Positions 854 through 64,000 are shown, counted from the first letter of the stretch. The stretch: DNA of 64,000 nt from an uncultured Pirellulaceae bacterium (GCA_964409865.1 CAYPGE010000004.1:1740-65739); one strand, 5' to 3'. The notes: generated from the letters alone by a model not told the origin. Made by a program: numbers and translations.

Positions 854-3157
854 ATGAAACGATTTGCGTCATGGGTGGGGCTTGCGGCGTGGACTTGGGC
901 CGCTCTGGCCGCGGCAGCCGAGGAAAGTAACGTTGCCAACGTGGAACCCGTGCGGGTCGCGGACGGCAAGTTGCAGATCGGGCTGGACCCGGCCAACGGA
1001 ACGCTCCTGGAACTGGTCCAGTTGCCTGACGGCTGCAATCAACTCGCCGGCGGTCCGGAGCCCTTGGGGCTGTGGCAGATCACCGTCCGCGACGGCGAGA
1101 CTGCGCACGAATTGAGCGCCGAGCGCGCTGGTCCTCCCAAAATCGAGCGACTGACGGCGGATCAATCTGGATTGCGGCTGGTGTGGGACCAGGTTGCAGC
1201 CGAAGGGACGCAACCGCTGCGCGTGGAGGTCCTGATCCGGCTCGGCCAACAGGGCGAATCGCTCAGCCGCTGGGATCTGTCGGTCGTGAAGCCGAAAGGC
1301 GTGCGGCTGACGCAAGTCCGGTTTCCCCGCGTCCCCAGCCTGCGGGAGCGTACCGAGGAAGTGCTCGCCATTCCGCGCGAGTTGGGCGCTCTGGCCCGCA
1401 ACCCCCGCGCTCTGATCCAAGGCAAGAACAAGCAGGGCGCCCGCCTCGCCTGGCGCTATCCGTTTCCCCTGAACATGCCGTGCCTGGCCTTCTATCAGGA
1501 CCATGGTCCCGGCTTCTACGCGGCTTGCGACGACCCGCAGAACTACCGCAAGGAGTTCGCGCTGTGGGGTGACGGGCAGGGACGAGTGCATTTCGAAATC
1601 CTGCACGAGCCGGAACAGGAGGCCGCCGAGCTGGCCGAGTTCCACCTTCCCTTTGCGGTCGTGCTGGGCGCGTTCCACGGCGATTGGACGACCGCGGCGC
1701 GATTGTATCGCCAGTCGCCGGCAGCCAAGACGATTGCCGGCCGCGGCCGGTTGCGCCGCCAGTTGACGCCGGCCTGGTTGCCCGAGACCGGACTCTGGGT
1801 GTGGAATCGCGGCCGGTCGCCGGGCGTGTTGGAGCCGGCGACGGTGATGCGGAAGCACCTGCAGACGCCGGTCAGCGTGCTGTGGCACTGGTGGCACAAC
1901 TGCGCCTACGACGCCGGTTTTCCCGAATACCTGCCGCCTCGCGAAGGCAGCGAACGGTTCCAGGCCGCCTTGGCCGCGGCGCAGCAGCAGGACGTCCACG
2001 CGATCCTGTACATGAACCAACGTCTGTGGGGAATGCAGACCCAGAGTTGGATCGACGAGGGCGCCGAGGCGTACGCCGTCAAGGGACCGGACGGCCAGGT
2101 CCGGCCGGAGGTGTACAATGTGTTCATGAAGGCGCCCTGCGTGCCGATGTGCATCGGCACTCGATTCTGGCGCGACAAGTACGCCGGTCTGGCGCAAGAA
2201 GTCTTCTGCGGCCTGAAAGCCGACGGTGTCTACATGGATCAGACGGGCGTCTTAGCCAATTGCTACGATCCCAGTCACGGCCATATCTTGGGAACCGGCC
2301 GGTATTGGACGGACGGTTTGGCGATGCTCACCGCCGAGATCCGCGATCGCGGCTCCACGCGCGGCCGCGTGGCGTTGGGAGGCGAATTCTGCGGCGAGCC
2401 GTGGATCGGGAGCCTGGACTTGACGTTGGCCCTGAGCGTCAGCGCCGACCGCATCGGTTCGAGTCCCGTCTGGGAGCCGATCCCGTTTTTTCAAGCGGTG
2501 TACCACGGCAGCACGATCGTCTTCGGCAACTATGCCGGACTGGTTCATCCGCCCTATGACGAGAAATGGCCGCCGGAAAAGACCCTGCCGGGAACTCTGA
2601 CGTTGCTGGATCGCAAGTTCAGCAAGCAATTCCTGCTGGAGCAGTCGCGGACCTTTGCCTGGGGCATGCAGCCCATGCTCGCGAATTTCCTGCCTTCGCA
2701 ACTGCAGGAACGCCCCGAGGAAATCGACTTCGTGACGCGGTTGGTCCGCACGCGGATGCAGGCGCTCAAGTACCTGCTGCACGGCACATGGGTTCGCCCA
2801 CCGGCGCTCGACGTACCGCAGCAGGAAATCGACGTCGCACAAATCGGAGTCTACACGCCCCTGCGAGCCTCCAAACGGACCCACCCCGTGGCGTTAGCCG
2901 GCGCGTGGCAAGCCGCGGACGGGGACGTGGCCATTGTTCTGGCCAGCATTCACGACCAGAAACTCAGACTGCGGCTGCCCATCGACGCCCAAGCGTACGG
3001 TCTACGTGCCCGCTGTGCCGTGTATCGCATCGACGAGGCTGGCCGGCAGCGTCTGGGCATGTTCGATTCGCGCGATCCGGTTTGGCAGCTTGATCTGCCT
3101 CCGCGCGGGCTCTGCCTGCTCGAGTTCTCCCGCGAGGAGAACTGCGATTTACCTTGA
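854..3157 (+). CDS. Secreted uncharacterised 767-aa protein (possibly glycoside-hydrolase-like; family not recognised with certainty)
   Basis: Long ORF with a signal peptide (MKRFASWVGLAAWTWAALAAAAE) and G/C-rich third codon positions. The antisense ORF 869..2197 is Arg/Gly/Ala-rich shadow. Confidence 0.8.
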   Translation: MKRFASWVGLAAWTWAALAAAAEESNVANVEPVRVADGKLQIGLDPANGTLLELVQLPDGCNQLAGGPEPLGLWQITVRDGETAHELSAERAGPPKIERLTADQSGLRLVWDQVAAEGTQPLRVEVLIRLGQQGESLSRWDLSVVKPKGVRLTQVRFPRVPSLRERTEEVLAIPRELGALARNPRALIQGKNKQGARLAWRYPFPLNMPCLAFYQDHGPGFYAACDDPQNYRKEFALWGDGQGRVHFEILHEPEQEAAELAEFHLPFAVVLGAFHGDWTTAARLYRQSPAAKTIAGRGRLRRQLTPAWLPETGLWVWNRGRSPGVLEPATVMRKHLQTPVSVLWHWWHNCAYDAGFPEYLPPREGSERFQAALAAAQQQDVHAILYMNQRLWGMQTQSWIDEGAEAYAVKGPDGQVRPEVYNVFMKAPCVPMCIGTRFWRDKYAGLAQEVFCGLKADGVYMDQTGVLANCYDPSHGHILGTGRYWTDGLAMLTAEIRDRGSTRGRVALGGEFCGEPWIGSLDLTLALSVSADRIGSSPVWEPIPFFQAVYHGSTIVFGNYAGLVHPPYDEKWPPEKTLPGTLTLLDRKFSKQFLLEQSRTFAWGMQPMLANFLPSQLQERPEEIDFVTRLVRTRMQALKYLLHGTWVRPPALDVPQQEIDVAQIGVYTPLRASKRTHPVALAGAWQAADGDVAIVLASIHDQKLRLRLPIDAQAYGLRARCAVYRIDEAGRQRLGMFDSRDPVWQLDLPPRGLCLLEFSREENCDLP

Positions 3158-3200
3158 AAGACGACGGCGGATCAGTCGGGTCAGCCCCATCTCGACGATC

Positions 3201-4517
3201 CTACGCCAGCTTGGTGATCCCCGGAATCGGCACCGGATAGGTCCCGTCGGCGCCGGGCTTGGCAGGCGGGTCCATGTCCCAACTGACGTTGTCCGGGCCG
3301 GCGCGCCACGGCGAGTTGAGGGCCTGTTCCCACGTCATCTGCTGGCCCGTGTAGCAGACCATCTGGCCCAGCAGCGACAGCATCGTGCTGCGGACCATGC
3401 GGAGGCCGTCGTTCACGGTCTGGCCGCTGCGGACGGCGTCGAACAGCACCACGTGCTCGGCATCGTACATGTTGGCTTTCGGTCCGCTGTACTCCCAGTT
3501 CGTGGCGCCTTCGATGCGGCATTTGTTGGGCAAGTACGCGCGGCCCTTGGTGCCCAGAATCGTGTCCGAGACCTCGCTGTAGCAGCCGTCCTGGGCGCGG
3601 ACGTTGGCATACAGCCGCACGCCGTTGGCGTACTCGTAGACGATCGCGTCGTGGTCGAACACGTCGCCGTGGACGGGCGAGAAGCAGGACGAACGGCCGC
3701 CGGAACCGAAGGCTTTGACCGGCGTTTCCTCGCGCAACGCCCAGGCGGCCTTGTCGATGCTGTGCAACAGCGACTGCGGACCGTCGTCGCCCGACAGCCA
3801 GCGGAAGTGGTACCAGTTGCGGAACTGGTACTCCAGTTCGCTCCACCCCGCCTGGCGTTCGATGTTGCGGTAGGTCGAACGCATGTAGGTTTCCTGGATC
3901 GCAACGATGTCGCCGATCGCGCCGTCCAGCACGCGCTGGATCGTTTCCTGCACCGCTTTGTCGTAGCGCCAGCACAGCCCGGAGACGATGCTCAGCTTCT
4001 TTTTCTGGGCCTCGTCGACCGCTTGCTGGACGACATGAATCCCCGGCGGATCGATGGCGTGGGGCTTCTCCACGAACACGTGCTTGCCGGCGTCGACGGC
4101 GGCCTTCAAGTAGAGGGGATGATATTTGGACGTGCAGGCGATCAGCACGACGTCGACTCCGCTGTCGATCACTTTCTGGTAGGCGTCAAAGCCGACGAAG
4201 CAGTGGTCGTCGTCCACCGCCACCTGGTCGGGCTTGTTGTTCTTAAGGTTCGCACGGCTGGTCTTCACCTTGTCGTCGAAGATGTCGGACATGGCGATCA
4301 GGCGAACGTCAGGCCCGGCGTTCATGGCATTGACCGCCGCGCCGCTGCCGCGGCCACCGCAGCCGATCAAGCCAACCTTGATCACATCGCTGCCGGCGGC
4401 ATGGACGCTGCGAGCCAGGGGCAGCGTGCCTAATGCCGTTCCGGCTGCGGCCGAGGCGGCCAGGAACTGACGGCGGGAAAAACGTTGGCGGGAGGTTGGC
4501 TCGTGGCGTTCGTTCAT
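3201..4517 (-). CDS. Gfo/Idh/MocA-family oxidoreductase with twin-arginine signal
   Basis: Track ORF 3201..4625 trimmed to ATG 4517, which is preceded by AAGGAG (8-nt spacer). The N-terminus MNERHEPTSRQRFSRRQFLAASAAAG is a Tat signal. VGLIGCGGRGSGAA is a Rossmann motif typical of the family. Confidence 0.9.
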   Translation of the reverse strand: MNERHEPTSRQRFSRRQFLAASAAAGTALGTLPLARSVHAAGSDVIKVGLIGCGGRGSGAAVNAMNAGPDVRLIAMSDIFDDKVKTSRANLKNNKPDQVAVDDDHCFVGFDAYQKVIDSGVDVVLIACTSKYHPLYLKAAVDAGKHVFVEKPHAIDPPGIHVVQQAVDEAQKKKLSIVSGLCWRYDKAVQETIQRVLDGAIGDIVAIQETYMRSTYRNIERQAGWSELEYQFRNWYHFRWLSGDDGPQSLLHSIDKAAWALREETPVKAFGSGGRSSCFSPVHGDVFDHDAIVYEYANGVRLYANVRAQDGCYSEVSDTILGTKGRAYLPNKCRIEGATNWEYSGPKANMYDAEHVVLFDAVRSGQTVNDGLRMVRSTMLSLLGQMVCYTGQQMTWEQALNSPWRAGPDNVSWDMDPPAKPGADGTYPVPIPGITKLA

Positions 4518-4690
4518 CGGGAGACTCCTTGGGATGGGACTTGAGGGATCACGGTTGTGCATGGTAACGATCTGCGGGCCGCATGTCATCCAGGGGGGAG
4601 AAGTTCCAGCATCCATCGCCACCAAACGCGACGCATGCTATGCTGGTGAGCGATCGGTCAGCCCTTCCAAGACGCCCCAGGAGTGAAACC

Positions 4691-6202
4691 ATGCACCGAC
4701 GCGATCTGCTCAAAGCCGGCGCGGCAGCCGCTGGAATACTGGCTGTTCCCGCGAACCGTTCGACGGGCGCGGGCCACGCGATTTCTGCGATGCCGGCGGA
4801 TACACCCGCCGTCTTGGCCGGCTACGGCGCCGCGGATCACCGGCGACGGCTGATGAACATCGGCTTCTGCCAGCGGGCCATTCGTACATGTTTGCGCAAG
4901 CATCTGGTCACCGGTTACCTGCCGGGCCAGTGCTGTTACAACTTGGGCGAGTACCCCTGCCGCAAGCCTTGGGATCCCGATGATTGGGACGAGCAGGAAT
5001 TGGACCGCCTGCGGGACCACGGCATTCGCTTGCTCCAAGTCCACGAGGAATGGAACGATTCGCAACGTCTGTTCGGCGGCCACAAGCTCGCGCCGCTGAA
5101 CCCCGCCGGCTTTCGCCGCTTCGTGGACATGGTACACCGGCGAGGCATGAAGCTGATCGTGTATGTGTCCAGCGGCTACTTCGAGAAAAACGATCCCGAC
5201 TTCCGGCCGGAATGGACCGCGAAGGACGATCATCCGCTGGTCGAGATCTACTTCCGCTACGCCCACTGTTCGCCGGCCAGTCCAGGTTGGCGGGCGTACT
5301 TCTTCAAGCATCTGGTCCGCATCTTGGACGACTACGGCATCGACGGCGTCTACAACGACCTCGGCTATCGTCAGCCACCAGACGTCGCGGGCCAGCCGAG
5401 CGGCGATCAAGTGCTGGCCTTCGAGGAAAACGCCGGCCACGACGGAGCATTGTCGGATCTGCTGGCCCTGATCTACGCCGAAGTCCATCGTCGCGGGGGT
5501 GTGGTCAAAGTTCATCGGGGCAACGTCCTTGCTCCCAAGACCGATCTGACGGTGTACGACTACCTCTGGGTCGGCGAAGGAGCGAAGCAAGGCGACCGTT
5601 TTCGCGAGGCCGTCAAGGGGCATGTGCCGTACGTCGTCCCGTGCCTGGACATGAGCCGAGCCACGATTGCCAGCGAGGACGAATTGTACTTGCACGCGAT
5701 CCCCTACCTGCAATTCCCGCTGCTGCTGGCGGGGCGGCCGTTCACAGGCGAACGGGCCGCGATTTCCGGCATCGAGTATCCGCCCGAAGAACGCTGTTTC
5801 TGGACGCGGCACTGCCGGGCGATCTGGAAACACTACCAAGCCCACCCGAACGGCCCCTTCAGCTACGGCTGGTGGGATTCCGTGCCGGGGCGGCCGGAAG
5901 CCCGCCCCACACACGCCCGCTGGCTGAAGCAGTACCTGCCGATGGTCGAAGAGGGCACCTGGGCCTGGCTGGAAATCGGCCAGTCGGAATTGTTCCGCCA
6001 GGCGTTGCCCACGGATGTGGTCGCGTCTGCGTTTGCCAACCGTGAACTCTATCTGGTGTTGGCGAACTACGGCCAGCAGCCGGCGCAAGTCGAGACGCGC
6101 GACCAATACGTGGCAGTGGCGGACGCTGCCGCCGCTCCCAAGACAACGTGGCGTTTGGAGGGACGATCGCTGGCCATCTTGCGACGCTGTGTCCCATCGT
6201 AG
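4691..6202 (+). CDS. Tat-signal uncharacterised protein, possibly TIM-barrel glycosidase-like
   Basis: Track ORF 4583..6202 trimmed to ATG 4691, preceded by AGGAG. MHRRDLLKAGAAAAG is a Tat signal. The function call is weak (segments such as GMKLIVYVSSGYF and DGVYNDLGY resemble glycosidase barrels). Confidence 0.8.
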   Translation: MHRRDLLKAGAAAAGILAVPANRSTGAGHAISAMPADTPAVLAGYGAADHRRRLMNIGFCQRAIRTCLRKHLVTGYLPGQCCYNLGEYPCRKPWDPDDWDEQELDRLRDHGIRLLQVHEEWNDSQRLFGGHKLAPLNPAGFRRFVDMVHRRGMKLIVYVSSGYFEKNDPDFRPEWTAKDDHPLVEIYFRYAHCSPASPGWRAYFFKHLVRILDDYGIDGVYNDLGYRQPPDVAGQPSGDQVLAFEENAGHDGALSDLLALIYAEVHRRGGVVKVHRGNVLAPKTDLTVYDYLWVGEGAKQGDRFREAVKGHVPYVVPCLDMSRATIASEDELYLHAIPYLQFPLLLAGRPFTGERAAISGIEYPPEERCFWTRHCRAIWKHYQAHPNGPFSYGWWDSVPGRPEARPTHARWLKQYLPMVEEGTWAWLEIGQSELFRQALPTDVVASAFANRELYLVLANYGQQPAQVETRDQYVAVADAAAAPKTTWRLEGRSLAILRRCVPS

Positions 6203-6257
6203 AGGCCCTCACCCCCAGCCCGTCTCCCATACGGCGCGGGGAGGTTTGTTAGGTCCC

Positions 6258-7454
6258 ATGTCCCAAGTTGTATTCCTCGAACAACTGCGGCAGGAAGCGG
6301 TCCGACGCTATGGCGTGCGGCCGGGCGGCGTGCGCGTCGTGCGGTCGCCGTATCGCATCTGCCCGTTGGGCGCTCACATCGACCATCAGTTGGGGCCCGT
6401 GACGGCCATGGCCATCGATCAGGCCGTCCACGTGGCCTATGCTCCGTTGGCAGGCGAAGTGCGGCTGAGCAGCTTGGACTTCGCGGGAGACGTTCAGTTT
6501 TCCTTGGATCACGTCCCCGAGCGGCGCGGCGGCGATTGGGGGAACTTTGCCCGCGGGGCGGTCCGTTCGTTACAGCAGCACTATCCTCTGCCATGCGGGA
6601 TCCAAGGAGTGACCGCCGGCCGTCTGGACGGCGGCGGGCTCAGTTCCTCCGCCGCGATCGGCGTAGCCCTGCTGCTGGCCCTGGAGGAGGCTAACGGCCT
6701 GACGGTTACCGCGCAGGAGAACATCGCCCTGGACCAGGCGATCGAAAACGAGTACCTGGGCCTGCGGAACGGCATCCTGGACCAGTCGGCGATCTTGCTG
6801 TCGCGGCGAGGCCATCTGACGTACCTTGATTGCCGAACACGCGAACACGAATTGATCCCGTCCACGGTACCTGCCGGATCCCCGGCGATCCTGTTGGCGT
6901 TCTCCGGACTCAAGCAGGCGCTGGTCGGTACGGACTACAACCGGCGGGTCGACGAGTGCCGCGCGGCGGCAGAAGTGCTGCTGCGGGCGCTGGGCCGGCC
7001 GGATGCGGTGCCCGTCTTGCGGAACATTGAACCCGACGAGTACGCGAAATATCGGCACCTGTTGAACGGTCCCCCCGCCCGCCGCGCGGCGCACTTTTTC
7101 TCCGAAGTCCAACGCGTCCGGGAAGGGGTCGAATGCTGGCGTCGCGGTGACTTGGCCGGCTTCGGCCGTCTGGTCTCCGCCTCCGGCGAGAGTTCCATTC
7201 AGAATTACGAATGCGGCTGCCCGCCGTTGGTCGATTTGTACGAGATTCTGATCGCCACCGAGGGCGTGTACGGTACACGCTTCAGTGGCGCGGGTTTCCG
7301 CGGTTGTTGTGTGGCTCTGGTGGAGCGTCAAGCGGCAGAGGCGGCTGTGGAATCCGTCCTGGACCGGTATCGCCAGCGTCAGCCGCAACTGGCCGGCGAC
7401 GCCTTCGCCCTGGTGTGCGGCAGCGACGACGGGGCAAGGCACCTGCGAGAGTAG
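6258..7454 (+). CDS. GHMP-family sugar kinase (galactokinase / galacturonokinase-like)
   Basis: Track ORF 6015..7454 trimmed to ATG 6258 (GGAGG upstream). It has the N-terminal motif RSPYRICPLGAHIDHQ and the GHMP ATP motif GGGLSSSAA. The N-motif resembles galacturonokinases more than classical GalK (from memory). Confidence 0.85.
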   Translation: MSQVVFLEQLRQEAVRRYGVRPGGVRVVRSPYRICPLGAHIDHQLGPVTAMAIDQAVHVAYAPLAGEVRLSSLDFAGDVQFSLDHVPERRGGDWGNFARGAVRSLQQHYPLPCGIQGVTAGRLDGGGLSSSAAIGVALLLALEEANGLTVTAQENIALDQAIENEYLGLRNGILDQSAILLSRRGHLTYLDCRTREHELIPSTVPAGSPAILLAFSGLKQALVGTDYNRRVDECRAAAEVLLRALGRPDAVPVLRNIEPDEYAKYRHLLNGPPARRAAHFFSEVQRVREGVECWRRGDLAGFGRLVSASGESSIQNYECGCPPLVDLYEILIATEGVYGTRFSGAGFRGCCVALVERQAAEAAVESVLDRYRQRQPQLAGDAFALVCGSDDGARHLRE

Positions 7455-7457
7455 GCA

Positions 7458-7500
7458 TCTCGCTCCGCGAGATGGAAGGCGATCCTCTCGCGGAGCGAGA
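7458..7500. repeat. 15-bp-stem hairpin 4 nt after the kinase stop codon (REP-like or terminator-like, no U-tract)
   Basis: tctcgctccgcgaga (7458-7472) pairs with tctcgcggagcgaga (7486-7500); the loop is 13 nt. Confidence 0.7.
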
Positions 7501-7522
7501 GGGCTACGATGAGGAAGACGCC

Positions 7523-8638
7523 ATGACAGACTTGCCGGATTCGATCGCGATTGCGGGAGCGTGGGGGTATATCGGCCGGAAGTTCCTGGACGTCGCCCTG
7601 CGGCAGCGGATTCGCACGTTTGTGTATGACCCTGGCCCCATGCCGGCGGACATCGATCCGGACGCCTTGACCCGTCTAAACGACGAGTCGGAATTCTATC
7701 GCCTGCCGGTCGACATGTTCCACTTGGCCGCGCATCCCGATCAGCGCCGGACGGGGCAGCAGATGCTGCTCGAACGTGCCAGGTTCGAGCCGCTGGCCAT
7801 CCTGAACGAAAAGCCCATGGCCTCGCCGGAATCGCCTGAGGATTGTGACCAGTTGGTCGCCGGGGCGAGAGACAGCGGCGTCTGTATGCTGTACGATTTC
7901 CCCGAACTGTACGACCCCTTGACCGAGCGCATTATCGAACACCTCTCGTCCTATCGCGATGTGCAAATCACTGGCATCTCGATGTGCCGCTCCAAGGATC
8001 GCGAAGCCCCAGAGAATCCGCGGAACTACAAGCGGATGGTCCCGATCCAGTACCAGGAATCCGTGCATTGCCTGGCGTACGTGCTGTTCGTGCTGGCGCG
8101 TATTCGCGGCAGCCTGGACGAAGTGTTCGATGAAGGCGTTGGCATCCGCGCCGAGTCTGAGCCTTATTCGCCGCCGAACCCCGAAATCTACCCCTACGTC
8201 GTCGACGGAAAGTGCAGCTACCAGCTCACTCTGGGCAGCCTGGCGATCCAGGGCCTGACGAACTTCAAGGCCGGCGCGGAATTCACCAAACGGCGAGTTC
8301 TCTGCGGCCGCGGAGACGGCCAGCCGTTTCGCATCGAGGTGGAATACCTGGAAGGCCAGAAGCAGTTGAAGATCAATGGCGCGGACCAGCGAGTCGATCC
8401 CTGCGCGAATTCCTACGAGTCGGTCCTGAGAACGTTCACGCGCTGGCGGCGGCACGTGGGTCGCGACGAGTTGATGAGCGGCATCTATCCGAATCCGGCC
8501 TTTGCACGCATCACGTACCAGCTGTCCAGTGCGTTGTGGCGGGCCGGCCGCGCCCGCTCCGCGGTGCAACTGGCCGATGTGGATCAGCTGCTCAAGTTTG
8601 ACGCCGGCTTTCGTGAATCACTCCGTATTGGCCGATGA
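7523..8638 (+). CDS. NAD(P)-binding Rossmann-fold protein (oxidoreductase-like), function unknown
   Basis: Track ORF 7211..8638 trimmed to ATG 7523, downstream of the hairpin. The N-terminus contains IAIAGAWGYIGRKF, a dinucleotide-binding glycine motif. Confidence 0.7.
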   Translation: MTDLPDSIAIAGAWGYIGRKFLDVALRQRIRTFVYDPGPMPADIDPDALTRLNDESEFYRLPVDMFHLAAHPDQRRTGQQMLLERARFEPLAILNEKPMASPESPEDCDQLVAGARDSGVCMLYDFPELYDPLTERIIEHLSSYRDVQITGISMCRSKDREAPENPRNYKRMVPIQYQESVHCLAYVLFVLARIRGSLDEVFDEGVGIRAESEPYSPPNPEIYPYVVDGKCSYQLTLGSLAIQGLTNFKAGAEFTKRRVLCGRGDGQPFRIEVEYLEGQKQLKINGADQRVDPCANSYESVLRTFTRWRRHVGRDELMSGIYPNPAFARITYQLSSALWRAGRARSAVQLADVDQLLKFDAGFRESLRIGR

Positions 8639-8842
8639 TGGGGACTGCCAAGGCGGAAACCCACTTTTTGTCCCGCCGGTCATCCCATCATGTTGACAAA
8701 TCTGCAGCACCTACTCTACTCTAGGAACATGCCAATTCAGGTTGTCCGTCAAGGAGCCTCTGCTGGACGAGACCCGGCTGGCCGGCTGGCAAACCGTCAA
8801 GATCCCATTTTCGTTCCTAAGAACCACGCAAAGGAGGAGGCG

Positions 8843-10519: not shown

Positions 10520-10838
10520 GGCGGCACCTGCGGGTACTCGTGGCGAGTACCAACGGACCTCGAAGTCTCCGGCCAGCAAGAAACCTTTGTCGCGACGCTC
10601 AGCTACGACACGCTGGAACTCTACGGCAAGATGGAGGCGACGCTGCCGATCGTCATCCAGGGGAAATGACATCACGAACGAATCGCCGACGGCCGAGGAG
10701 GCACACCGGATCTCCGCCGAACTGGACGCACCTTCGCTCCAGGCCGAGTCCCCGCCGGCGCTGCTCCTCCTGCCCAAGCTAAAGACCGCCGAGCAGGCCG
10801 CCCAGGTGCAGAAGGGCGACTGGGACGTGATGCGGTTC

Positions 10839-38358: not shown

Positions 38359-38464
<106 letters not shown>

Positions 38465-52058: not shown

Positions 52059-52080
52059 CTCTGTCCCAAGTAAAGGGGAA

Positions 52081-54115: not shown

Positions 54116-54307
54116 AAAATCGGGCGCCCTACGAAGACAGGAGTCAGCCCCACCCCGGCCCCGCTTCTACAGGCCGGGCCGATGGCTTCGATCTCGTCTG
54201 CGAACACGATCGCCCGGGCGTAACGCCGAGCGCGGTCGAAAACCGCACGCCACGTCGCCACGTCTCGGCTCTTGACCACCGTGTGGGTTATAGCCTACAC
54301 TGTGGAG

Positions 54308-54448
54308 ATGGCAGAAGTCCGGGAGAAAACAATCAGGATCTATCGCGACCGGCGAGGTCGCTGTCCATACCTCGAATGGTTTTCGTCGTTGCGGGACAAT
54401 CGTGCGAAGCAGAATTATCGTGAGGAAGGGGATCATGCCGACGCTTGA
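54308..54448 (+). pseudogene. Truncated HigB/RelE-like killer remnant (mirror copy)
   Basis: Mirror of 11131..11271; I translated it codon by codon from ATG 54308 to TGA 54446-54448. Confidence 0.5.
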
Positions 54449-54740
54449 TTACAGAGAACACTTGTTGGAGGACCTAACTGATCCTGATTATGCCGCCGGG
54501 TACTTGACGGCCGCCTTGGAGGAAGGGGAAGACGTCTTTCTCTTGGCCATCCGCGATGTCGCCGAGGCTCACGGCGGTATAGGACGGCTTGCAGAGGGTA
54601 CCTTGCTCAATCGCGAAAACCTGTACAGCATGCTCTCCGAACGCGGCAACCCTCGACTTTCTAGTCTCATGTCCGTCCTTCGCGAATTAGGCGTCGAGAT
54701 TCAGTTCCGAGCAAAGCCGCGGGACACGAAAGCCGCGTAG
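54435..54740 (+). CDS. HigA-type antidote protein (mirror copy)
   Basis: Mirror of 10839..11144. Confidence 0.85.
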   Translation: MPTLDYREHLLEDLTDPDYAAGYLTAALEEGEDVFLLAIRDVAEAHGGIGRLAEGTLLNRENLYSMLSERGNPRLSSLMSVLRELGVEIQFRAKPRDTKAA

Positions 54741-55059
54741 GAACCGCATCACGTCCCAGTCGCCCTTCTGCACCTGGGCGGCCTGCTCGGCGGTCTTTAG
54801 CTTGGGCAGGAGGAGCAGCGCCGGCGGGGACTCGGCCTGGAGCGAAGGTGCGTCCAGTTCGGCGGAGATCCGGTGTGCCTCCTCGGCCGTCGGCGATTCG
54901 TTCGTGATGTCATTTCCCCTGGATGACGATCGGCAGCGTCGCCTCCATCTTGCCGTAGAGTTCCAGCGTGTCGTAGCTGAGCGTCGCGACAAAGGTTTCT
55001 TGCTGGCCGGAGACTTCGAGGTCCGTTGGTACTCGCCACGAGTACCCGCAGGTGCCGCC

Positions 55060-56736: not shown

Positions 56737-56940
56737 CGCCTCCTCCTTTGCGTGGTTCTTAGGAACGAAAATGGGATCTTGACGGTTTGCCAGCCGGCCA
56801 GCCGGGTCTCGTCCAGCAGAGGCTCCTTGACGGACAACCTGAATTGGCATGTTCCTAGAGTAGAGTAGGTGCTGCAGATTTGTCAACATGATGGGATGAC
56901 CGGCGGGACAAAAAGTGGGTTTCCGCCTTGGCAGTCCCCA

Positions 56941-58056
56941 TCATCGGCCAATACGGAGTGATTCACGAAAGCCGGCGTCAAACTTGAGCAGCTGATCCAC
57001 ATCGGCCAGTTGCACCGCGGAGCGGGCGCGGCCGGCCCGCCACAACGCACTGGACAGCTGGTACGTGATGCGTGCAAAGGCCGGATTCGGATAGATGCCG
57101 CTCATCAACTCGTCGCGACCCACGTGCCGCCGCCAGCGCGTGAACGTTCTCAGGACCGACTCGTAGGAATTCGCGCAGGGATCGACTCGCTGGTCCGCGC
57201 CATTGATCTTCAACTGCTTCTGGCCTTCCAGGTATTCCACCTCGATGCGAAACGGCTGGCCGTCTCCGCGGCCGCAGAGAACTCGCCGTTTGGTGAATTC
57301 CGCGCCGGCCTTGAAGTTCGTCAGGCCCTGGATCGCCAGGCTGCCCAGAGTGAGCTGGTAGCTGCACTTTCCGTCGACGACGTAGGGGTAGATTTCGGGG
57401 TTCGGCGGCGAATAAGGCTCAGACTCGGCGCGGATGCCAACGCCTTCATCGAACACTTCGTCCAGGCTGCCGCGAATACGCGCCAGCACGAACAGCACGT
57501 ACGCCAGGCAATGCACGGATTCCTGGTACTGGATCGGGACCATCCGCTTGTAGTTCCGCGGATTCTCTGGGGCTTCGCGATCCTTGGAGCGGCACATCGA
57601 GATGCCAGTGATTTGCACATCGCGATAGGACGAGAGGTGTTCGATAATGCGCTCGGTCAAGGGGTCGTACAGTTCGGGGAAATCGTACAGCATACAGACG
57701 CCGCTGTCTCTCGCCCCGGCGACCAACTGGTCACAATCCTCAGGCGATTCCGGCGAGGCCATGGGCTTTTCGTTCAGGATGGCCAGCGGCTCGAACCTGG
57801 CACGTTCGAGCAGCATCTGCTGCCCCGTCCGGCGCTGATCGGGATGCGCGGCCAAGTGGAACATGTCGACCGGCAGGCGATAGAATTCCGACTCGTCGTT
57901 TAGACGGGTCAAGGCGTCCGGATCGATGTCCGCCGGCATGGGGCCAGGGTCATACACAAACGTGCGAATCCGCTGCCGCAGGGCGACGTCCAGGAACTTC
58001 CGGCCGATATACCCCCACGCTCCCGCAATCGCGATCGAATCCGGCAAGTCTGTCAT
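56941..58056 (-). CDS. NAD(P)-binding Rossmann-fold protein (mirror copy)
   Basis: Mirror of 7523..8638. Confidence 0.7.
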   Translation of the reverse strand: MTDLPDSIAIAGAWGYIGRKFLDVALRQRIRTFVYDPGPMPADIDPDALTRLNDESEFYRLPVDMFHLAAHPDQRRTGQQMLLERARFEPLAILNEKPMASPESPEDCDQLVAGARDSGVCMLYDFPELYDPLTERIIEHLSSYRDVQITGISMCRSKDREAPENPRNYKRMVPIQYQESVHCLAYVLFVLARIRGSLDEVFDEGVGIRAESEPYSPPNPEIYPYVVDGKCSYQLTLGSLAIQGLTNFKAGAEFTKRRVLCGRGDGQPFRIEVEYLEGQKQLKINGADQRVDPCANSYESVLRTFTRWRRHVGRDELMSGIYPNPAFARITYQLSSALWRAGRARSAVQLADVDQLLKFDAGFRESLRIGR

Positions 58057-58124
58057 GGCGTCTTCCTCATCGTAGCCCTCTCGCTCCGCGAGAGGATCGC
58101 CTTCCATCTCGCGGAGCGAGATGC

Positions 58125-59321
58125 CTACTCTCGCAGGTGCCTTGCCCCGTCGTCGCTGCCGCACACCAGGGCGAAGGCGTCGCCGGCCAGTTGCGGCTGA
58201 CGCTGGCGATACCGGTCCAGGACGGATTCCACAGCCGCCTCTGCCGCTTGACGCTCCACCAGAGCCACACAACAACCGCGGAAACCCGCGCCACTGAAGC
58301 GTGTACCGTACACGCCCTCGGTGGCGATCAGAATCTCGTACAAATCGACCAACGGCGGGCAGCCGCATTCGTAATTCTGAATGGAACTCTCGCCGGAGGC
58401 GGAGACCAGACGGCCGAAGCCGGCCAAGTCACCGCGACGCCAGCATTCGACCCCTTCCCGGACGCGTTGGACTTCGGAGAAAAAGTGCGCCGCGCGGCGG
58501 GCGGGGGGACCGTTCAACAGGTGCCGATATTTCGCGTACTCGTCGGGTTCAATGTTCCGCAAGACGGGCACCGCATCCGGCCGGCCCAGCGCCCGCAGCA
58601 GCACTTCTGCCGCCGCGCGGCACTCGTCGACCCGCCGGTTGTAGTCCGTACCGACCAGCGCCTGCTTGAGTCCGGAGAACGCCAACAGGATCGCCGGGGA
58701 TCCGGCAGGTACCGTGGACGGGATCAATTCGTGTTCGCGTGTTCGGCAATCAAGGTACGTCAGATGGCCTCGCCGCGACAGCAAGATCGCCGACTGGTCC
58801 AGGATGCCGTTCCGCAGGCCCAGGTACTCGTTTTCGATCGCCTGGTCCAGGGCGATGTTCTCCTGCGCGGTAACCGTCAGGCCGTTAGCCTCCTCCAGGG
58901 CCAGCAGCAGGGCTACGCCGATCGCGGCGGAGGAACTGAGCCCGCCGCCGTCCAGACGGCCGGCGGTCACTCCTTGGATCCCGCATGGCAGAGGATAGTG
59001 CTGCTGTAACGAACGGACCGCCCCGCGGGCAAAGTTCCCCCAATCGCCGCCGCGCCGCTCGGGGACGTGATCCAAGGAAAACTGAACGTCTCCCGCGAAG
59101 TCCAAGCTGCTCAGCCGCACTTCGCCTGCCAACGGAGCATAGGCCACGTGGACGGCCTGATCGATGGCCATGGCCGTCACGGGCCCCAACTGATGGTCGA
59201 TGTGAGCGCCCAACGGGCAGATGCGATACGGCGACCGCACGACGCGCACGCCGCCCGGCCGCACGCCATAGCGTCGGACCGCTTCCTGCCGCAGTTGTTC
59301 GAGGAATACAACTTGGGACAT
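58125..59321 (-). CDS. GHMP-family sugar kinase (mirror copy)
   Basis: Mirror of 6258..7454. Confidence 0.85.
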   Translation of the reverse strand: MSQVVFLEQLRQEAVRRYGVRPGGVRVVRSPYRICPLGAHIDHQLGPVTAMAIDQAVHVAYAPLAGEVRLSSLDFAGDVQFSLDHVPERRGGDWGNFARGAVRSLQQHYPLPCGIQGVTAGRLDGGGLSSSAAIGVALLLALEEANGLTVTAQENIALDQAIENEYLGLRNGILDQSAILLSRRGHLTYLDCRTREHELIPSTVPAGSPAILLAFSGLKQALVGTDYNRRVDECRAAAEVLLRALGRPDAVPVLRNIEPDEYAKYRHLLNGPPARRAAHFFSEVQRVREGVECWRRGDLAGFGRLVSASGESSIQNYECGCPPLVDLYEILIATEGVYGTRFSGAGFRGCCVALVERQAAEAAVESVLDRYRQRQPQLAGDAFALVCGSDDGARHLRE

Positions 59322-59376
59322 GGGACCTAACAAACCTCCCCGCGCCGTATGGGAGACGGGCTGGGGGTGAGGGCCT

Positions 59377-60888
59377 CTACGATGGGACACAGCGTCGCAA
59401 GATGGCCAGCGATCGTCCCTCCAAACGCCACGTTGTCTTGGGAGCGGCGGCAGCGTCCGCCACTGCCACGTATTGGTCGCGCGTCTCGACTTGCGCCGGC
59501 TGCTGGCCGTAGTTCGCCAACACCAGATAGAGTTCACGGTTGGCAAACGCAGACGCGACCACATCCGTGGGCAACGCCTGGCGGAACAATTCCGACTGGC
59601 CGATTTCCAGCCAGGCCCAGGTGCCCTCTTCGACCATCGGCAGGTACTGCTTCAGCCAGCGGGCGTGTGTGGGGCGGGCTTCCGGCCGCCCCGGCACGGA
59701 ATCCCACCAGCCGTAGCTGAAGGGGCCGTTCGGGTGGGCTTGGTAGTGTTTCCAGATCGCCCGGCAGTGCCGCGTCCAGAAACAGCGTTCTTCGGGCGGA
59801 TACTCGATGCCGGAAATCGCGGCCCGTTCGCCTGTGAACGGCCGCCCCGCCAGCAGCAGCGGGAATTGCAGGTAGGGGATCGCGTGCAAGTACAATTCGT
59901 CCTCGCTGGCAATCGTGGCTCGGCTCATGTCCAGGCACGGGACGACGTACGGCACATGCCCCTTGACGGCCTCGCGAAAACGGTCGCCTTGCTTCGCTCC
60001 TTCGCCGACCCAGAGGTAGTCGTACACCGTCAGATCGGTCTTGGGAGCAAGGACGTTGCCCCGATGAACTTTGACCACACCCCCGCGACGATGGACTTCG
60101 GCGTAGATCAGGGCCAGCAGATCCGACAATGCTCCGTCGTGGCCGGCGTTTTCCTCGAAGGCCAGCACTTGATCGCCGCTCGGCTGGCCCGCGACGTCTG
60201 GTGGCTGACGATAGCCGAGGTCGTTGTAGACGCCGTCGATGCCGTAGTCGTCCAAGATGCGGACCAGATGCTTGAAGAAGTACGCCCGCCAACCTGGACT
60301 GGCCGGCGAACAGTGGGCGTAGCGGAAGTAGATCTCGACCAGCGGATGATCGTCCTTCGCGGTCCATTCCGGCCGGAAGTCGGGATCGTTTTTCTCGAAG
60401 TAGCCGCTGGACACATACACGATCAGCTTCATGCCTCGCCGGTGTACCATGTCCACGAAGCGGCGAAAGCCGGCGGGGTTCAGCGGCGCGAGCTTGTGGC
60501 CGCCGAACAGACGTTGCGAATCGTTCCATTCCTCGTGGACTTGGAGCAAGCGAATGCCGTGGTCCCGCAGGCGGTCCAATTCCTGCTCGTCCCAATCATC
60601 GGGATCCCAAGGCTTGCGGCAGGGGTACTCGCCCAAGTTGTAACAGCACTGGCCCGGCAGGTAACCGGTGACCAGATGCTTGCGCAAACATGTACGAATG
60701 GCCCGCTGGCAGAAGCCGATGTTCATCAGCCGTCGCCGGTGATCCGCGGCGCCGTAGCCGGCCAAGACGGCGGGTGTATCCGCCGGCATCGCAGAAATCG
60801 CGTGGCCCGCGCCCGTCGAACGGTTCGCGGGAACAGCCAGTATTCCAGCGGCTGCCGCGCCGGCTTTGAGCAGATCGCGTCGGTGCAT
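59377..60888 (-). CDS. Tat-signal uncharacterised glycosidase-like protein (mirror copy)
   Basis: Mirror of 4691..6202. Confidence 0.8.
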   Translation of the reverse strand: MHRRDLLKAGAAAAGILAVPANRSTGAGHAISAMPADTPAVLAGYGAADHRRRLMNIGFCQRAIRTCLRKHLVTGYLPGQCCYNLGEYPCRKPWDPDDWDEQELDRLRDHGIRLLQVHEEWNDSQRLFGGHKLAPLNPAGFRRFVDMVHRRGMKLIVYVSSGYFEKNDPDFRPEWTAKDDHPLVEIYFRYAHCSPASPGWRAYFFKHLVRILDDYGIDGVYNDLGYRQPPDVAGQPSGDQVLAFEENAGHDGALSDLLALIYAEVHRRGGVVKVHRGNVLAPKTDLTVYDYLWVGEGAKQGDRFREAVKGHVPYVVPCLDMSRATIASEDELYLHAIPYLQFPLLLAGRPFTGERAAISGIEYPPEERCFWTRHCRAIWKHYQAHPNGPFSYGWWDSVPGRPEARPTHARWLKQYLPMVEEGTWAWLEIGQSELFRQALPTDVVASAFANRELYLVLANYGQQPAQVETRDQYVAVADAAAAPKTTWRLEGRSLAILRRCVPS

Positions 60889-61061
60889 GGTTTCACTCCT
60901 GGGGCGTCTTGGAAGGGCTGACCGATCGCTCACCAGCATAGCATGCGTCGCGTTTGGTGGCGATGGATGCTGGAACTTCTCCCCCCTGGATGACATGCGG
61001 CCCGCAGATCGTTACCATGCACAACCGTGATCCCTCAAGTCCCATCCCAAGGAGTCTCCCG

Positions 61062-62378
61062 ATGAACGAACGCCACGAGCCAACCTCCCGCCAACGTTTT
61101 TCCCGCCGTCAGTTCCTGGCCGCCTCGGCCGCAGCCGGAACGGCATTAGGCACGCTGCCCCTGGCTCGCAGCGTCCATGCCGCCGGCAGCGATGTGATCA
61201 AGGTTGGCTTGATCGGCTGCGGTGGCCGCGGCAGCGGCGCGGCGGTCAATGCCATGAACGCCGGGCCTGACGTTCGCCTGATCGCCATGTCCGACATCTT
61301 CGACGACAAGGTGAAGACCAGCCGTGCGAACCTTAAGAACAACAAGCCCGACCAGGTGGCGGTGGACGACGACCACTGCTTCGTCGGCTTTGACGCCTAC
61401 CAGAAAGTGATCGACAGCGGAGTCGACGTCGTGCTGATCGCCTGCACGTCCAAATATCATCCCCTCTACTTGAAGGCCGCCGTCGACGCCGGCAAGCACG
61501 TGTTCGTGGAGAAGCCCCACGCCATCGATCCGCCGGGGATTCATGTCGTCCAGCAAGCGGTCGACGAGGCCCAGAAAAAGAAGCTGAGCATCGTCTCCGG
61601 GCTGTGCTGGCGCTACGACAAAGCGGTGCAGGAAACGATCCAGCGCGTGCTGGACGGCGCGATCGGCGACATCGTTGCGATCCAGGAAACCTACATGCGT
61701 TCGACCTACCGCAACATCGAACGCCAGGCGGGGTGGAGCGAACTGGAGTACCAGTTCCGCAACTGGTACCACTTCCGCTGGCTGTCGGGCGACGACGGTC
61801 CGCAGTCGCTGTTGCACAGCATCGACAAGGCCGCCTGGGCGTTGCGCGAGGAAACGCCGGTCAAAGCCTTCGGTTCCGGCGGCCGTTCGTCCTGCTTCTC
61901 GCCCGTCCACGGCGACGTGTTCGACCACGACGCGATCGTCTACGAGTACGCCAACGGCGTGCGGCTGTATGCCAACGTCCGCGCCCAGGACGGCTGCTAC
62001 AGCGAGGTCTCGGACACGATTCTGGGCACCAAGGGCCGCGCGTACTTGCCCAACAAATGCCGCATCGAAGGCGCCACGAACTGGGAGTACAGCGGACCGA
62101 AAGCCAACATGTACGATGCCGAGCACGTGGTGCTGTTCGACGCCGTCCGCAGCGGCCAGACCGTGAACGACGGCCTCCGCATGGTCCGCAGCACGATGCT
62201 GTCGCTGCTGGGCCAGATGGTCTGCTACACGGGCCAGCAGATGACGTGGGAACAGGCCCTCAACTCGCCGTGGCGCGCCGGCCCGGACAACGTCAGTTGG
62301 GACATGGACCCGCCTGCCAAGCCCGGCGCCGACGGGACCTATCCGGTGCCGATTCCGGGGATCACCAAGCTGGCGTAG
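61062..62378 (+). CDS. Tat-signal Gfo/Idh/MocA oxidoreductase (mirror copy)
   Basis: Mirror of 3201..4517; ATG 61062 is preceded by AAGGAG. Confidence 0.9.
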   Translation: MNERHEPTSRQRFSRRQFLAASAAAGTALGTLPLARSVHAAGSDVIKVGLIGCGGRGSGAAVNAMNAGPDVRLIAMSDIFDDKVKTSRANLKNNKPDQVAVDDDHCFVGFDAYQKVIDSGVDVVLIACTSKYHPLYLKAAVDAGKHVFVEKPHAIDPPGIHVVQQAVDEAQKKKLSIVSGLCWRYDKAVQETIQRVLDGAIGDIVAIQETYMRSTYRNIERQAGWSELEYQFRNWYHFRWLSGDDGPQSLLHSIDKAAWALREETPVKAFGSGGRSSCFSPVHGDVFDHDAIVYEYANGVRLYANVRAQDGCYSEVSDTILGTKGRAYLPNKCRIEGATNWEYSGPKANMYDAEHVVLFDAVRSGQTVNDGLRMVRSTMLSLLGQMVCYTGQQMTWEQALNSPWRAGPDNVSWDMDPPAKPGADGTYPVPIPGITKLA

Positions 62379-62421
62379 GATCGTCGAGATGGGGCTGACC
62401 CGACTGATCCGCCGTCGTCTT

Positions 62422-64000
62422 TCAAGGTAAATCGCAGTTCTCCTCGCGGGAGAACTCGAGCAGGCAGAGCCCGCGCGGAGGCAGATCAAGCTGCCAAACC
62501 GGATCGCGCGAATCGAACATGCCCAGACGCTGCCGGCCAGCCTCGTCGATGCGATACACGGCACAGCGGGCACGTAGACCGTACGCTTGGGCGTCGATGG
62601 GCAGCCGCAGTCTGAGTTTCTGGTCGTGAATGCTGGCCAGAACAATGGCCACGTCCCCGTCCGCGGCTTGCCACGCGCCGGCTAACGCCACGGGGTGGGT
62701 CCGTTTGGAGGCTCGCAGGGGCGTGTAGACTCCGATTTGTGCGACGTCGATTTCCTGCTGCGGTACGTCGAGCGCCGGTGGGCGAACCCATGTGCCGTGC
62801 AGCAGGTACTTGAGCGCCTGCATCCGCGTGCGGACCAACCGCGTCACGAAGTCGATTTCCTCGGGGCGTTCCTGCAGTTGCGAAGGCAGGAAATTCGCGA
62901 GCATGGGCTGCATGCCCCAGGCAAAGGTCCGCGACTGCTCCAGCAGGAATTGCTTGCTGAACTTGCGATCCAGCAACGTCAGAGTTCCCGGCAGGGTCTT
63001 TTCCGGCGGCCATTTCTCGTCATAGGGCGGATGAACCAGTCCGGCATAGTTGCCGAAGACGATCGTGCTGCCGTGGTACACCGCTTGAAAAAACGGGATC
63101 GGCTCCCAGACGGGACTCGAACCGATGCGGTCGGCGCTGACGCTCAGGGCCAACGTCAAGTCCAGGCTCCCGATCCACGGCTCGCCGCAGAATTCGCCTC
63201 CCAACGCCACGCGGCCGCGCGTGGAGCCGCGATCGCGGATCTCGGCGGTGAGCATCGCCAAACCGTCCGTCCAATACCGGCCGGTTCCCAAGATATGGCC
63301 GTGACTGGGATCGTAGCAATTGGCTAAGACGCCCGTCTGATCCATGTAGACACCGTCGGCTTTCAGGCCGCAGAAGACTTCTTGCGCCAGACCGGCGTAC
63401 TTGTCGCGCCAGAATCGAGTGCCGATGCACATCGGCACGCAGGGCGCCTTCATGAACACATTGTACACCTCCGGCCGGACCTGGCCGTCCGGTCCCTTGA
63501 CGGCGTACGCCTCGGCGCCCTCGTCGATCCAACTCTGGGTCTGCATTCCCCACAGACGTTGGTTCATGTACAGGATCGCGTGGACGTCCTGCTGCTGCGC
63601 CGCGGCCAAGGCGGCCTGGAACCGTTCGCTGCCTTCGCGAGGCGGCAGGTATTCGGGAAAACCGGCGTCGTAGGCGCAGTTGTGCCACCAGTGCCACAGC
63701 ACGCTGACCGGCGTCTGCAGGTGCTTCCGCATCACCGTCGCCGGCTCCAACACGCCCGGCGACCGGCCGCGATTCCACACCCAGAGTCCGGTCTCGGGCA
63801 ACCAGGCCGGCGTCAACTGGCGGCGCAACCGGCCGCGGCCGGCAATCGTCTTGGCTGCCGGCGACTGGCGATACAATCGCGCCGCGGTCGTCCAATCGCC
63901 GTGGAACGCGCCCAGCACGACCGCAAAGGGAAGGTGGAACTCGGCCAGCTCGGCGGCCTCCTGTTCCGGCTCGTGCAGGATTTCGAAATGCACTCGTCCC
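62422..64000 (-). CDS. Secreted uncharacterised protein, 3' part only (mirror copy of 1579..3157; the 5' end runs off the window)
   Basis: Mirror of the 854..3157 gene; the frame is open to nt 64000, and track ORF 62422..63993 is identical to the C-terminal 523 aa. Confidence 0.8.
   Translation of the reverse strand, partial: GRVHFEILHEPEQEAAELAEFHLPFAVVLGAFHGDWTTAARLYRQSPAAKTIAGRGRLRRQLTPAWLPETGLWVWNRGRSPGVLEPATVMRKHLQTPVSVLWHWWHNCAYDAGFPEYLPPREGSERFQAALAAAQQQDVHAILYMNQRLWGMQTQSWIDEGAEAYAVKGPDGQVRPEVYNVFMKAPCVPMCIGTRFWRDKYAGLAQEVFCGLKADGVYMDQTGVLANCYDPSHGHILGTGRYWTDGLAMLTAEIRDRGSTRGRVALGGEFCGEPWIGSLDLTLALSVSADRIGSSPVWEPIPFFQAVYHGSTIVFGNYAGLVHPPYDEKWPPEKTLPGTLTLLDRKFSKQFLLEQSRTFAWGMQPMLANFLPSQLQERPEEIDFVTRLVRTRMQALKYLLHGTWVRPPALDVPQQEIDVAQIGVYTPLRASKRTHPVALAGAWQAADGDVAIVLASIHDQKLRLRLPIDAQAYGLRARCAVYRIDEAGRQRLGMFDSRDPVWQLDLPPRGLCLLEFSREENCDLP

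Follow-up and report, generated by a model that had tools for sequence, protein, structure and literature searches.

A perfect 62-kb palindrome beside a planctomycete tRNA-Asn island is probably an assembler fold-back at a native 22-bp palindrome

The window, by which is meant the whole stretch of 64,000 nucleotides analysed from an uncultured Pirellulaceae bacterium, begins in ordinary chromosomal DNA. Its left arm (1579..32789, + strand) is genuine chromosome of Candidatus Anammoximicrobium, judging by Pfam content and by 99.97-100% identity to the non-palindromic contigs L024, L033/L058, L059 and L060. The genes of this arm are, by Pfam, ordinary housekeeping and envelope genes, and its end carries, in order, a VIT-VWA gene, an enoyl-CoA hydratase gene (31707..32489, +), a tRNA-Asn gene with a GTT anticodon (32629-32702, +) and 87 nt of leader belonging to a genomic island. 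No further chromosomal protein gene lies between the enoyl-CoA hydratase gene and the tRNA, and the hydratase gene was the anchor for locating the same locus in other assemblies. A Pfam search of the window found nothing in the arms that would maintain a giant palindrome. The preceding nucleotides (1..1578, +) are also genuine chromosome, and lie within a segment (1-13157) that is 100% identical to L024, a JGI contig reaching farther upstream than the window.

From position 1579 to position 64000 the window is a perfect reverse-complement palindrome. In a base-by-base mirror test there were 0 mismatches and no indels, each base x in 1579..64000 pairing with the complement of base 65579-x. The apex lies at 32789|32790 with 0 loop bases, 31,211 positions are mirrored, and a match of this kind cannot have arisen by chance. 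All ORFs and both tRNA-Asn genes are mirrored about the apex, the second tRNA falling at 32877-32950 (−) by the mirror rule. The right arm (32790..64000, −) is the exact reverse complement of the left; it is judged to be an artefactual second print-out that replaces the native integrase island, and its tRNA an artefactual duplicate. Positions 1-1578 have no partner inside the window, as their mirror copy would fall past its right edge, and this fits a longer source contig. The original prediction had described just such a spacerless palindrome, free of indels, in which only about half of the sequence is unique, and the mirror test bears it out; its arms of at least 31,211 bp, with nucleotides 1-1578 mirrored beyond the edge, agree with the two arms of 34,528 nt proposed below.

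The apex coincides with the exact centre of a short perfect palindrome of 22 bp, AAAGTGGTAGT|ACTACCACTTT (32779..32800, no strand assigned), and is situated 87 nt after the tRNA-Asn gene. This sequence is native, since contigs L008 and L033 agree with the window through position 32800 and part from it at 32801. On the native chromosome 21 nt separate its end from the downstream start codon of an integrase gene. It is present in a single copy in the window, where the chance expectation is 0. The identical 22-mer recurs in 38 other loci and, wherever both neighbours could be identified, has a tRNA on one side and an integrase gene on the other; its invariance among the compared loci is a consequence of how they were found. 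The 14 named genomes among these 38 loci are all Planctomycetota, and all 38 keep the palindrome intact, including those on contigs of 0.49 and 5.17 Mb. A simple terminator scan did not call the apex hairpin, because its tail holds only 4 T. A sequence-specific operator was considered and rejected; distant integrase relatives show other hairpins at the same place, and for that reason a structural role for the apex hairpin is favoured.

What follows the palindrome on the native chromosome can be read from a 104,328-bp JGI contig, Ga0116242_10000346 (L033/L058), which matches window positions 15593-32800 with 3 mismatches (99.98% identity) and has about 50 kb flanking the site on each side. Past the palindrome it continues into an integrase gene (387 aa), a gene for a 451-aa protein, and genes with HTH_17 and DnaB_C domains. 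The site is crossed in the same native manner in L001/L062, L008, L063, L064 and L070, while L065 begins 56 nt left of the apex. These other same-strain assemblies are 99.97-100% identical to the left arm and are without the fold-back. One of the native crossings, L070, comes from JGI sample 3300009782, a number adjacent to that of a sample with the fold-back (3300009780). Contigs L001 and L003 diverge from the window at 32706 and were considered as a possible different island; this was rejected, as the divergence is a 1-nt indel and both have the same leader, with a 20-bp palindrome. In a relative that is 83.5% identical (L067, a 144-kb contig), similarity fades about 18 nt past the tRNA. A 31-mer specific to the junction of this species had no match in the metagenome_contigs and viral_contigs collections, which evidently do not include relevant samples.

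The integrase is 387-394 aa long in this island; its counterparts at related loci reach about 420 aa and adjoin tRNA genes of several specificities. The island integrase matches PF00589 (Phage_integrase) only, with Int_N below the cut-off. For the island-side contigs L063 and L064, the match to the window begins at 32656, which suggests that the att core lies in the 3' part of the tRNA, comprising its last 47 nt (32656-32702). The other end of the island (attR), sought as a repeat of this 3' part, was not found within about 11 kb of the integrase gene. With a tyrosine integrase adjoining a tRNA whose 3' part the element carries, the native context of the apex appears to be that of a tRNA-integrated genomic island, with tRNA-Asn as its integration target.

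Between the tRNA and the palindrome, the island carries a structured element of three helices, a closing stem and two hairpins (32717..32763, +; mirror copy 32816-32862, −). In the alignment of related loci 97.7% of cells are paired, and 8 pairs show compensatory changes; the covariation score is 0.495, compared with 0.157 for shuffles and at most 0.09 for slid partners. The layout is constant across these loci, with the three-helix element followed by a terminal hairpin at a fixed distance of 85-88 nt, and the leader matched no Rfam family. A conserved, covarying leader of this structure is shared by a family of planctomycete integrative elements, and as a candidate RNA or single-strand DNA element it may merit a separate look.

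The fold-back is not confined to the window. One such contig, L002, is a GenBank MAG contig (DAOOXP010000138.1, GCA_035393565.1) of 11,676 bp, or 2 x 5,838 nt, that is palindromic from end to end and has its genes annotated twice (HPM80643-HPM80646). Two others are folded more briefly. MEGAHIT appears to fold palindromic segments so that a tail of (k+1)/2 nt is left, and k=59 is on its default k-list. L006, a MEGAHIT k141 contig, stops 30 nt past the apex, which equals (59+1)/2, and L031 from JGI stops 52 nt past it, equal to (103+1)/2; the JGI k-list for MEGAHIT is 23,43,63,83,103,123 (PMC6126044). For tails of these lengths, the fold-back junction must have been present in at least some of the reads or pseudo-reads, as 60-mers in one data set and as 104-mers in another. 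Overall, 6 contigs reach the apex with the exact 22-bp version, and 4 of them fold back; among the 38 loci in other species that share the 22-mer, 0 do so. This recurrence is higher than a rare random chimera would suggest, although several assemblies probably reuse the same reads.

The company of MEGAHIT short-read products bears on whether a long-read artefact (nanopore template-complement read-through or a missed SMRTbell adapter) or an MDA chimera could have given the palindrome. Such fold-backs are well documented (PMC12870357, PMC6218980), but here the sister contigs with the same fold-back come from short reads, the two arms do not differ by a single independent error in 31 kb, and the turn falls on the centre of a palindrome and not on an arbitrary fragment end. 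In addition, the proposed arm start coincides with a scaffold boundary of a short-read assembly; this boundary falls within a tandem repeat, which long reads would have crossed. An origin of this kind is exceedingly improbable.

The outer end of the arm can be placed indirectly. Proteins identical to those of the window are found on a 69,056-bp contig, and half of that length, 34,528 nt, would place the start of the arm at L024:7409. At exactly this position, inside a 351-nt tandem array, the scaffold of another short-read assembly resumes after a 100-N gap. From the halving and the coincidence of boundaries, the window is most likely a slice of the 69,056-bp contig, which would consist of two arms of 34,528 nt. 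L002 and L031, by comparison, share an arm start at 26952. A second rearrangement junction at 26952 was considered and rejected in favour of a coverage gap: the neighbouring contig of the fold-back sample stops 34 nt short of L031, and coverage in that sample is for this reason taken to be low.

The arm ends also bear on the proposal that the chromosome itself was rearranged and is faithfully reported by the contig: once the island was lost, fold-back repair at the palindrome would have produced a giant inverted duplication whose arms measure at least 31 kb. When a double-strand break is followed by fold-back priming, as established from yeast and bacterial work on tandem-inversion-duplications, a perfect palindrome centred on a short native one is the expected outcome; moreover, the integrase genes of this island variant are seen on one complete contig only. 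Against this, the likely arm end corresponds to the base with a repeat-induced assembly boundary rather than with a second novel junction, and arm size varies among assemblies (5,838 compared with at least 31,211 nt), one arm ending at a coverage gap. A genuine duplication should have its second junction at the same position in all assemblies, which is not the case; in the contigs examined there is no such novel junction, and no right arm exits into new sequence. JGI samples with adjacent numbers show the native junction in this same strain, and long spacerless palindromes are unstable in bacteria. A real duplication is therefore very improbable.

A less drastic alternative is that fold-back DNA molecules were physically present in some samples, making the junction real but without a stable 62-kb palindrome in the chromosome. 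They could form if a break or nick at the hairpin allowed the 3' end to snap back on the palindrome and be extended, in the cell or during end repair, or if the tyrosine recombinase of the island or a structure-specific nuclease made hairpin-capped ends. The 30- and 52-nt tails require input sequence that spans the junction, the event recurs at one site in several assemblies, some of them of low coverage, and its apex marks the exact midpoint of a palindrome with a tyrosine recombinase gene next to it. A palindrome in this position has a superficial resemblance to telRL-telN of phage N15. However, the neighbouring protein is a typical tRNA-site integrase with PF00589 only, whose att core seems to lie in the tRNA and not in the palindrome, and none of the contigs that reach the integrase side shows a mirror-image fold-back there. 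The palindrome is intact at the 38 other loci, and samples of the same strain carry the native junction. As for the tails, one palindromic library molecule would yield two identical reads, and with a minimum k-mer count of 2 these would probably be retained. Physical fold-back molecules are on balance improbable. The narrower proposal that the island itself makes a real junction, its integrase or a nuclease cutting the symmetric site to give hairpin-capped or self-primed ends, is less probable again; if true, this family of tRNA islands in planctomycetes would give rise, at a programmed position, to inverted chromosome dimers or to hairpin ends.

The explanation we consider very probable is that an assembler wrote one chromosomal stretch of 34.5 kb twice, turning at the native 22-bp palindrome, and the contig indeed looks like the product of a short-read de Bruijn graph. 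It would consist of one graph segment of 34,528 nt, U, followed by its own reverse complement, U being genuine Candidatus Anammoximicrobium chromosome that ends in tRNA-Asn and the first 87 nt of the tRNA-integrated island. At the end of U lies the 22-bp palindrome, the stem of the conserved hairpin just upstream of the island integrase gene. A graph edge from U to its own reverse complement would have come either from a few fold-back read pairs (snap-back or chimeric) with this palindrome at their middle, or from a local failure to bridge to the integrase side, and along this edge the assembler would walk back over U and not into the integrase. MEGAHIT would fold such a segment, leaving its (k+1)/2 tail, while other pipelines would print it in full, as in the window and in DAOOXP010000138.1. 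Since one graph segment would have been written out twice, the right half would not be real extra DNA.

A fold-back artefact had been proposed for this DNA in the original prediction, and the proposal gains from the native integrase continuation, the assembler-specific tails and the coincidence of the proposed arm end with a boundary in another short-read assembly. Exact arms without a spacer, a unique continuation in independent assemblies and the tail signature of a particular assembler are all found here; symmetry of the whole contig is seen directly in L002, and for the window only by way of the presumed 69,056-bp contig. The advice that right-arm genes should not be counted as paralogues is well founded, as the same duplication has already been annotated in GenBank. 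The suggested origins can, however, be narrowed. A missed adapter or strand switch in long reads is unlikely because the contig resembles a short-read graph product, MDA is not needed, and the turn occurs at a native palindrome.

On these grounds the giant palindrome is almost certainly not a real genomic feature. Duplicated sequence would make up the right half of the window and likewise that of at least one public MAG contig (DAOOXP010000138.1), for which duplicate protein accessions already exist. Fold-back contigs of this type make genomes look larger than they are, add false paralogues and raise the apparent number of tRNA copies, and they mask the true downstream sequence, in this case an integrase island at tRNA-Asn. 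A simple screen for them would combine four signs: an apex on a short native palindrome, sister assemblies in which the sequence continues natively, a MEGAHIT tail of (k+1)/2 nt and a total length of twice the arm.

Several known systems share parts of this picture. P4-like tRNA islands, which have a tyrosine integrase beside attL, resemble the native locus in their use of a tRNA (here tRNA-Asn, with the putative att core in its 3' 47 nt), in an integrase transcribed away from the tRNA, and in the genes for an excisionase-like HTH_17 protein and a DnaB-type helicase that come after it. The present island differs in having, between tRNA and integrase, a leader with a covarying three-helix element and terminal hairpin that matched no Rfam family. 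The hairpin telomeres of N15 (TelN/telRL), Borrelia (ResT) and Agrobacterium (TelA) also combine a perfect palindrome with an adjacent gene of tyrosine-recombinase type, and a sequence read through a hairpin end would likewise turn at the centre of the site and leave a palindrome without a spacer. At the present locus the apex is a palindromic target of this sort, but the enzyme is an ordinary PF00589 integrase and not a member of the telomere resolvase family, the att core is placed in the tRNA, and the unresolved site persists, both in the same strain and in the 38 other loci, in intact form. Nor is a hairpin product of the integrase side present in L033 or L062-L065.

Illumina libraries are reported to give chimeric reads at palindromes and inverted repeats (PMC10908179). 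In the PDSM model, a single-stranded end produced while DNA is fragmented or its ends are repaired folds at a palindrome and pairs with itself, and reads of this type are the proposed source of the few that would span the junction here; that work deals with low-frequency false variants in human capture data, and the link to the present contig is our inference. A likeness in outcome is found in Mycobacterium bovis, where SPAdes contigs that are palindromic throughout are reported as assembly errors (PMC9455707). There too a sequence is followed by its exact reverse complement, with every gene doubled in identical DNA on the opposite strand and inflated gene counts. Unlike those contigs, the present one has a turning point pinned to a specific native 22-bp palindrome, and the event can be traced across assemblers, from folded MEGAHIT tails in some assemblies to the full palindrome in others.

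Every base x from 1579 to 64000 was compared directly with the base at 65579-x, and there are no mismatches and no indels, so that the perfect, spacerless palindrome of the original prediction is correct as stated. The left arm (1579–32789, + strand) turns into the right arm (32790–64000, − strand) between 32789 and 32790, without unpaired bases. The GC content is 63%. A palindrome of 62 kb cannot be reached by chance. The ORFs of the two arms mirror one another, as does the tRNA-Asn(GTT) gene (32629–32702, +; mirror copy 32877–32950, −), which ends 87 nt upstream of the apex. The left arm carries an ordinary chromosomal set of genes, those for GFO/IDH/MocA oxidoreductases, DUF6259 proteins, a GHMP kinase, a DUF362 protein with its 4Fe-4S partner, an S41 peptidase, a PMT-type glycosyltransferase, a PAP2 phosphatase, a trypsin-like peptidase, an aldose epimerase, a VIT-VWA protein and an enoyl-CoA hydratase (31707–32489, +), and none for replication, partition or telomere functions. 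Identical proteins in NCBI are from the planctomycete Candidatus Anammoximicrobium sp. Two adjoining heptamer microsatellites, (CGGGATA)n then (GAAATCT/GAGATCT)n, occupy the intergenic region directly upstream of the aldose 1-epimerase gene (27113–27220; mirror 38359–38466).

The exact hydratase protein was looked up in public assemblies, which gave contigs 99.3–100% identical to the window. In two of them, L008 (ENA, 1,576 bp) and L033, the match reaches 32800, 11 nt past the apex, and then diverges; native DNA therefore contains a perfect 22-bp palindrome (32779–32800, with AAAGTGGTAGT to the left and ACTACCACTTT to the right of its centre), and the fold-back apex is its exact centre. The window has no other copy of it, and chance alone predicts 0. 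L033, like L058 and L068, is a slice of one 104,328-bp JGI contig (3300010355, Ga0116242_10000346), which shows three mismatches to window 15593–32800 and extends about 50 kb to either side of the apex site. Past the palindrome it encodes a 387-aa tyrosine integrase, with its start codon 21 nt after the palindrome, followed by a 451-aa protein, an HTH_17 protein, a DnaB_C helicase and more genes. A second variant of the island, seen natively at L001/L062, L063, L064 and L065, has a palindrome of 20 bp because of two substitutions. At L063 and L064 the match to the window starts at 32656, and the att core therefore comprises 47 nt at the 3' end of the tRNA; leader, palindrome and integrase gene are all parts of the island. 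L063 (JGI 3300026161, Ga0265425_1036846) also has 267 nt of unrelated sequence (977–1243) after the hydratase gene, in place of that gene's end, the intergenic stretch and the 5' portion of tRNA-Asn; from the att core onwards the contig runs through leader and palindrome into the integrase gene. A variant junction, a chimeric contig or a tandem-island site could each account for this.

Other assemblies fold back at the same apex. A GenBank contig (L002/L030; DAOOXP010000138.1, GCA_035393565.1) of 11,676 nt (2 × 5,838 nt) is palindromic over its full extent, and its genes are annotated twice under consecutive accessions (HPM80643 VIT, HPM80644 and HPM80645 hydratase, HPM80646 VIT), leaving the record in need of curation. 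L031/L069 (JGI 3300009780) corresponds to window 26952–32841 and shares the 5,838-nt arm, to which 52 nt of fold-back are added, and a MEGAHIT k141 contig (L006) ends 30 nt past the apex. MEGAHIT output folds a palindromic graph segment to one arm plus (k+1)/2, and its default list includes k=59. The two tails fit this rule, with 52 = (103+1)/2 and 30 = (59+1)/2. The MEGAHIT k list used at JGI (23, 43, 63, 83, 103, 123) includes k=103 (PMC6126044).

The best explanation, and a highly probable one, is that the assembly graph folded back on itself at the native palindrome, which acted as the seed. For k larger than 22, a segment can be joined to its own reverse complement only if the input contains sequence across the fold-back junction; Illumina libraries have been documented to yield chimeric reads where there are palindromes or inverted repeats (PMC10908179). 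One hairpin-derived library molecule would give two identical mates, enough for a minimum k-mer count of 2, and where coverage is low, chance could remove the bridge that natively leads into the integrase, so that only the fold-back would continue the segment. In sample 3300009780 one contig (L059) stops at window 26917 and the next (L031) starts at 26952; the organism is therefore thinly covered in this sample, and the gap is consistent with loss of the bridge. SPAdes has been reported to output whole palindromic contigs as errors, isolate genomes included (PMC9455707). Fold-back DNA that is physically real at this site would also supply the junction sequence that the 30- and 52-nt tails need, and it would suit the recurrence here in four of the six contigs that reach the apex with the 22-bp version of the palindrome, compared with none of 38 loci of other species with the same 22-mer. 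It is nevertheless unlikely: no mirror-image fold-back is seen on the integrase side, the adjoining enzyme is an ordinary PF00589 integrase and no telomere resolvase, and the same strain has the native junction. A native junction is present in L070 (JGI 3300009782, 1,573 bp), from a sample whose number adjoins that of a fold-back sample. L070 and L008 are nearly the same contig, so that at least some ENA assemblies are probably re-assemblies of JGI reads and the fold-back cases not all independent.

The outer ends also bear on the origin of the arms. The longest contig carrying the exact hydratase and VIT-VWA proteins in the cluster table has 69,056 bp; if wholly palindromic, its arm would be 34,528 nt and would start at window coordinate -1738, which is position 7409 of L024. 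In L025, a scaffold of GCA_035393565.1, the block following a 100-N gap starts exactly there. This position falls inside a 351-nt tandem array (L024 6439–7745) of a giant CLIPPER/dockerin gene. The array, about 3.7 copies with adjacent copies 88–91% identical, lies within a 2,291-aa reading frame, ~1.4–2.7 kb upstream of window position 1, and assemblies break or differ at it (the 100-N gap in L025, N runs in L026). A to-the-base match of inferred arm start and block start is very unlikely by chance, which supports the derivation of the window from the 69,056-bp contig as one segment plus its own reverse complement, and supports outer ends that are repeat-induced short-read boundaries rather than biological junctions. 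A stable giant inverted duplication is highly improbable, since the arm end differs among assemblies, at assembly-determined points, and no exit junction is seen. A long-read or MDA origin, which had been named among the possible ones, is not borne out: the boundary coincidence argues against long reads, and with error-free arms and an inferred short-read boundary such an origin has only the slightest probability. The suspicion of an artefact is thus supported and refined by the native palindrome at the apex, the native continuation, the assembler tails and the boundary coincidence. The 62-kb palindrome is not real as a genomic feature, and the right-arm genes, as foreseen, are not paralogues; they are a second copy of the same segment, to be discarded.

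The value of the locus lies in this curation point and in a structured integrase leader. In this planctomycete family of integrase islands, tRNA and palindrome have between them a three-helix element of a closing stem and two hairpins (32717–32763, +; mirror 32816–32862, −), which covaries strongly. In an alignment of 22 loci (A1), 97.7% of its cells are paired, compensatory changes occur at eight pairs, and the covariation score is 0.495 versus 0.157 when shuffled and at most 0.09 with slid partners. Its G-U type pairs favour the + strand, that of the tRNA and the integrase gene. The leader has no Rfam match, and its three-helix element is a candidate for a structured RNA or for a single-strand DNA site. 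A terminator or attenuator role between tRNA and integrase is plausible but unproven; a simple terminator scan did not call the palindrome hairpin. A match to a sigma-70-like promoter (TTGACC and CATACT with 17 nt between them; L033 9745–9773, window 32587–32615) ends 13 nt upstream of tRNA-Asn; were tRNA and leader transcribed together, it would be the promoter of the leader.

Species-representative genomes with the 22-mer number 14, every one from Planctomycetota, and 24 metagenome contigs contain it as well; its invariance in this set only reflects the way the loci were found. Wherever neighbours are identifiable, a tRNA gene stands on one side of it and the start of an integrase (~390–420 aa) on the other; at several short loci no tRNA is detectable or the integrase side is unclear, and L044 lacks both. 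The tRNAs vary (Pro, Arg with four anticodons, Val, Gly, Asn), yet tRNA end and palindrome centre are always 85–88 nt apart. The perfect arm is 11–17 nt, except in two metagenome contigs where the same core extends, in the contig interior, to 80 bp (L038 645–724) and 82 bp (L044 2344–2425). L038 is natively flanked, by tRNA-Gly and by the integrase gene on opposite sides, and the integrase start codon falls within its arms together with its mirror copy; L044 is AT-rich and lacks a nearby tRNA or integrase gene. Both could be of natural origin, as homogenised inverted repeats, or be further effects of assembly. Four IMG/VR loci (L071, L072, L075, L082) keep the layout of tRNA, structured element, hairpin, RBS and integrase, with a hairpin of different sequence (loop ~1–9 nt) within ~100 nt upstream of the integrase start. 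Across the IMG/VR integrase relatives (34–43% identity), hairpins of other sequence stand in the palindrome's place, and it is therefore the stem-loop, not the 22-mer, that is conserved.
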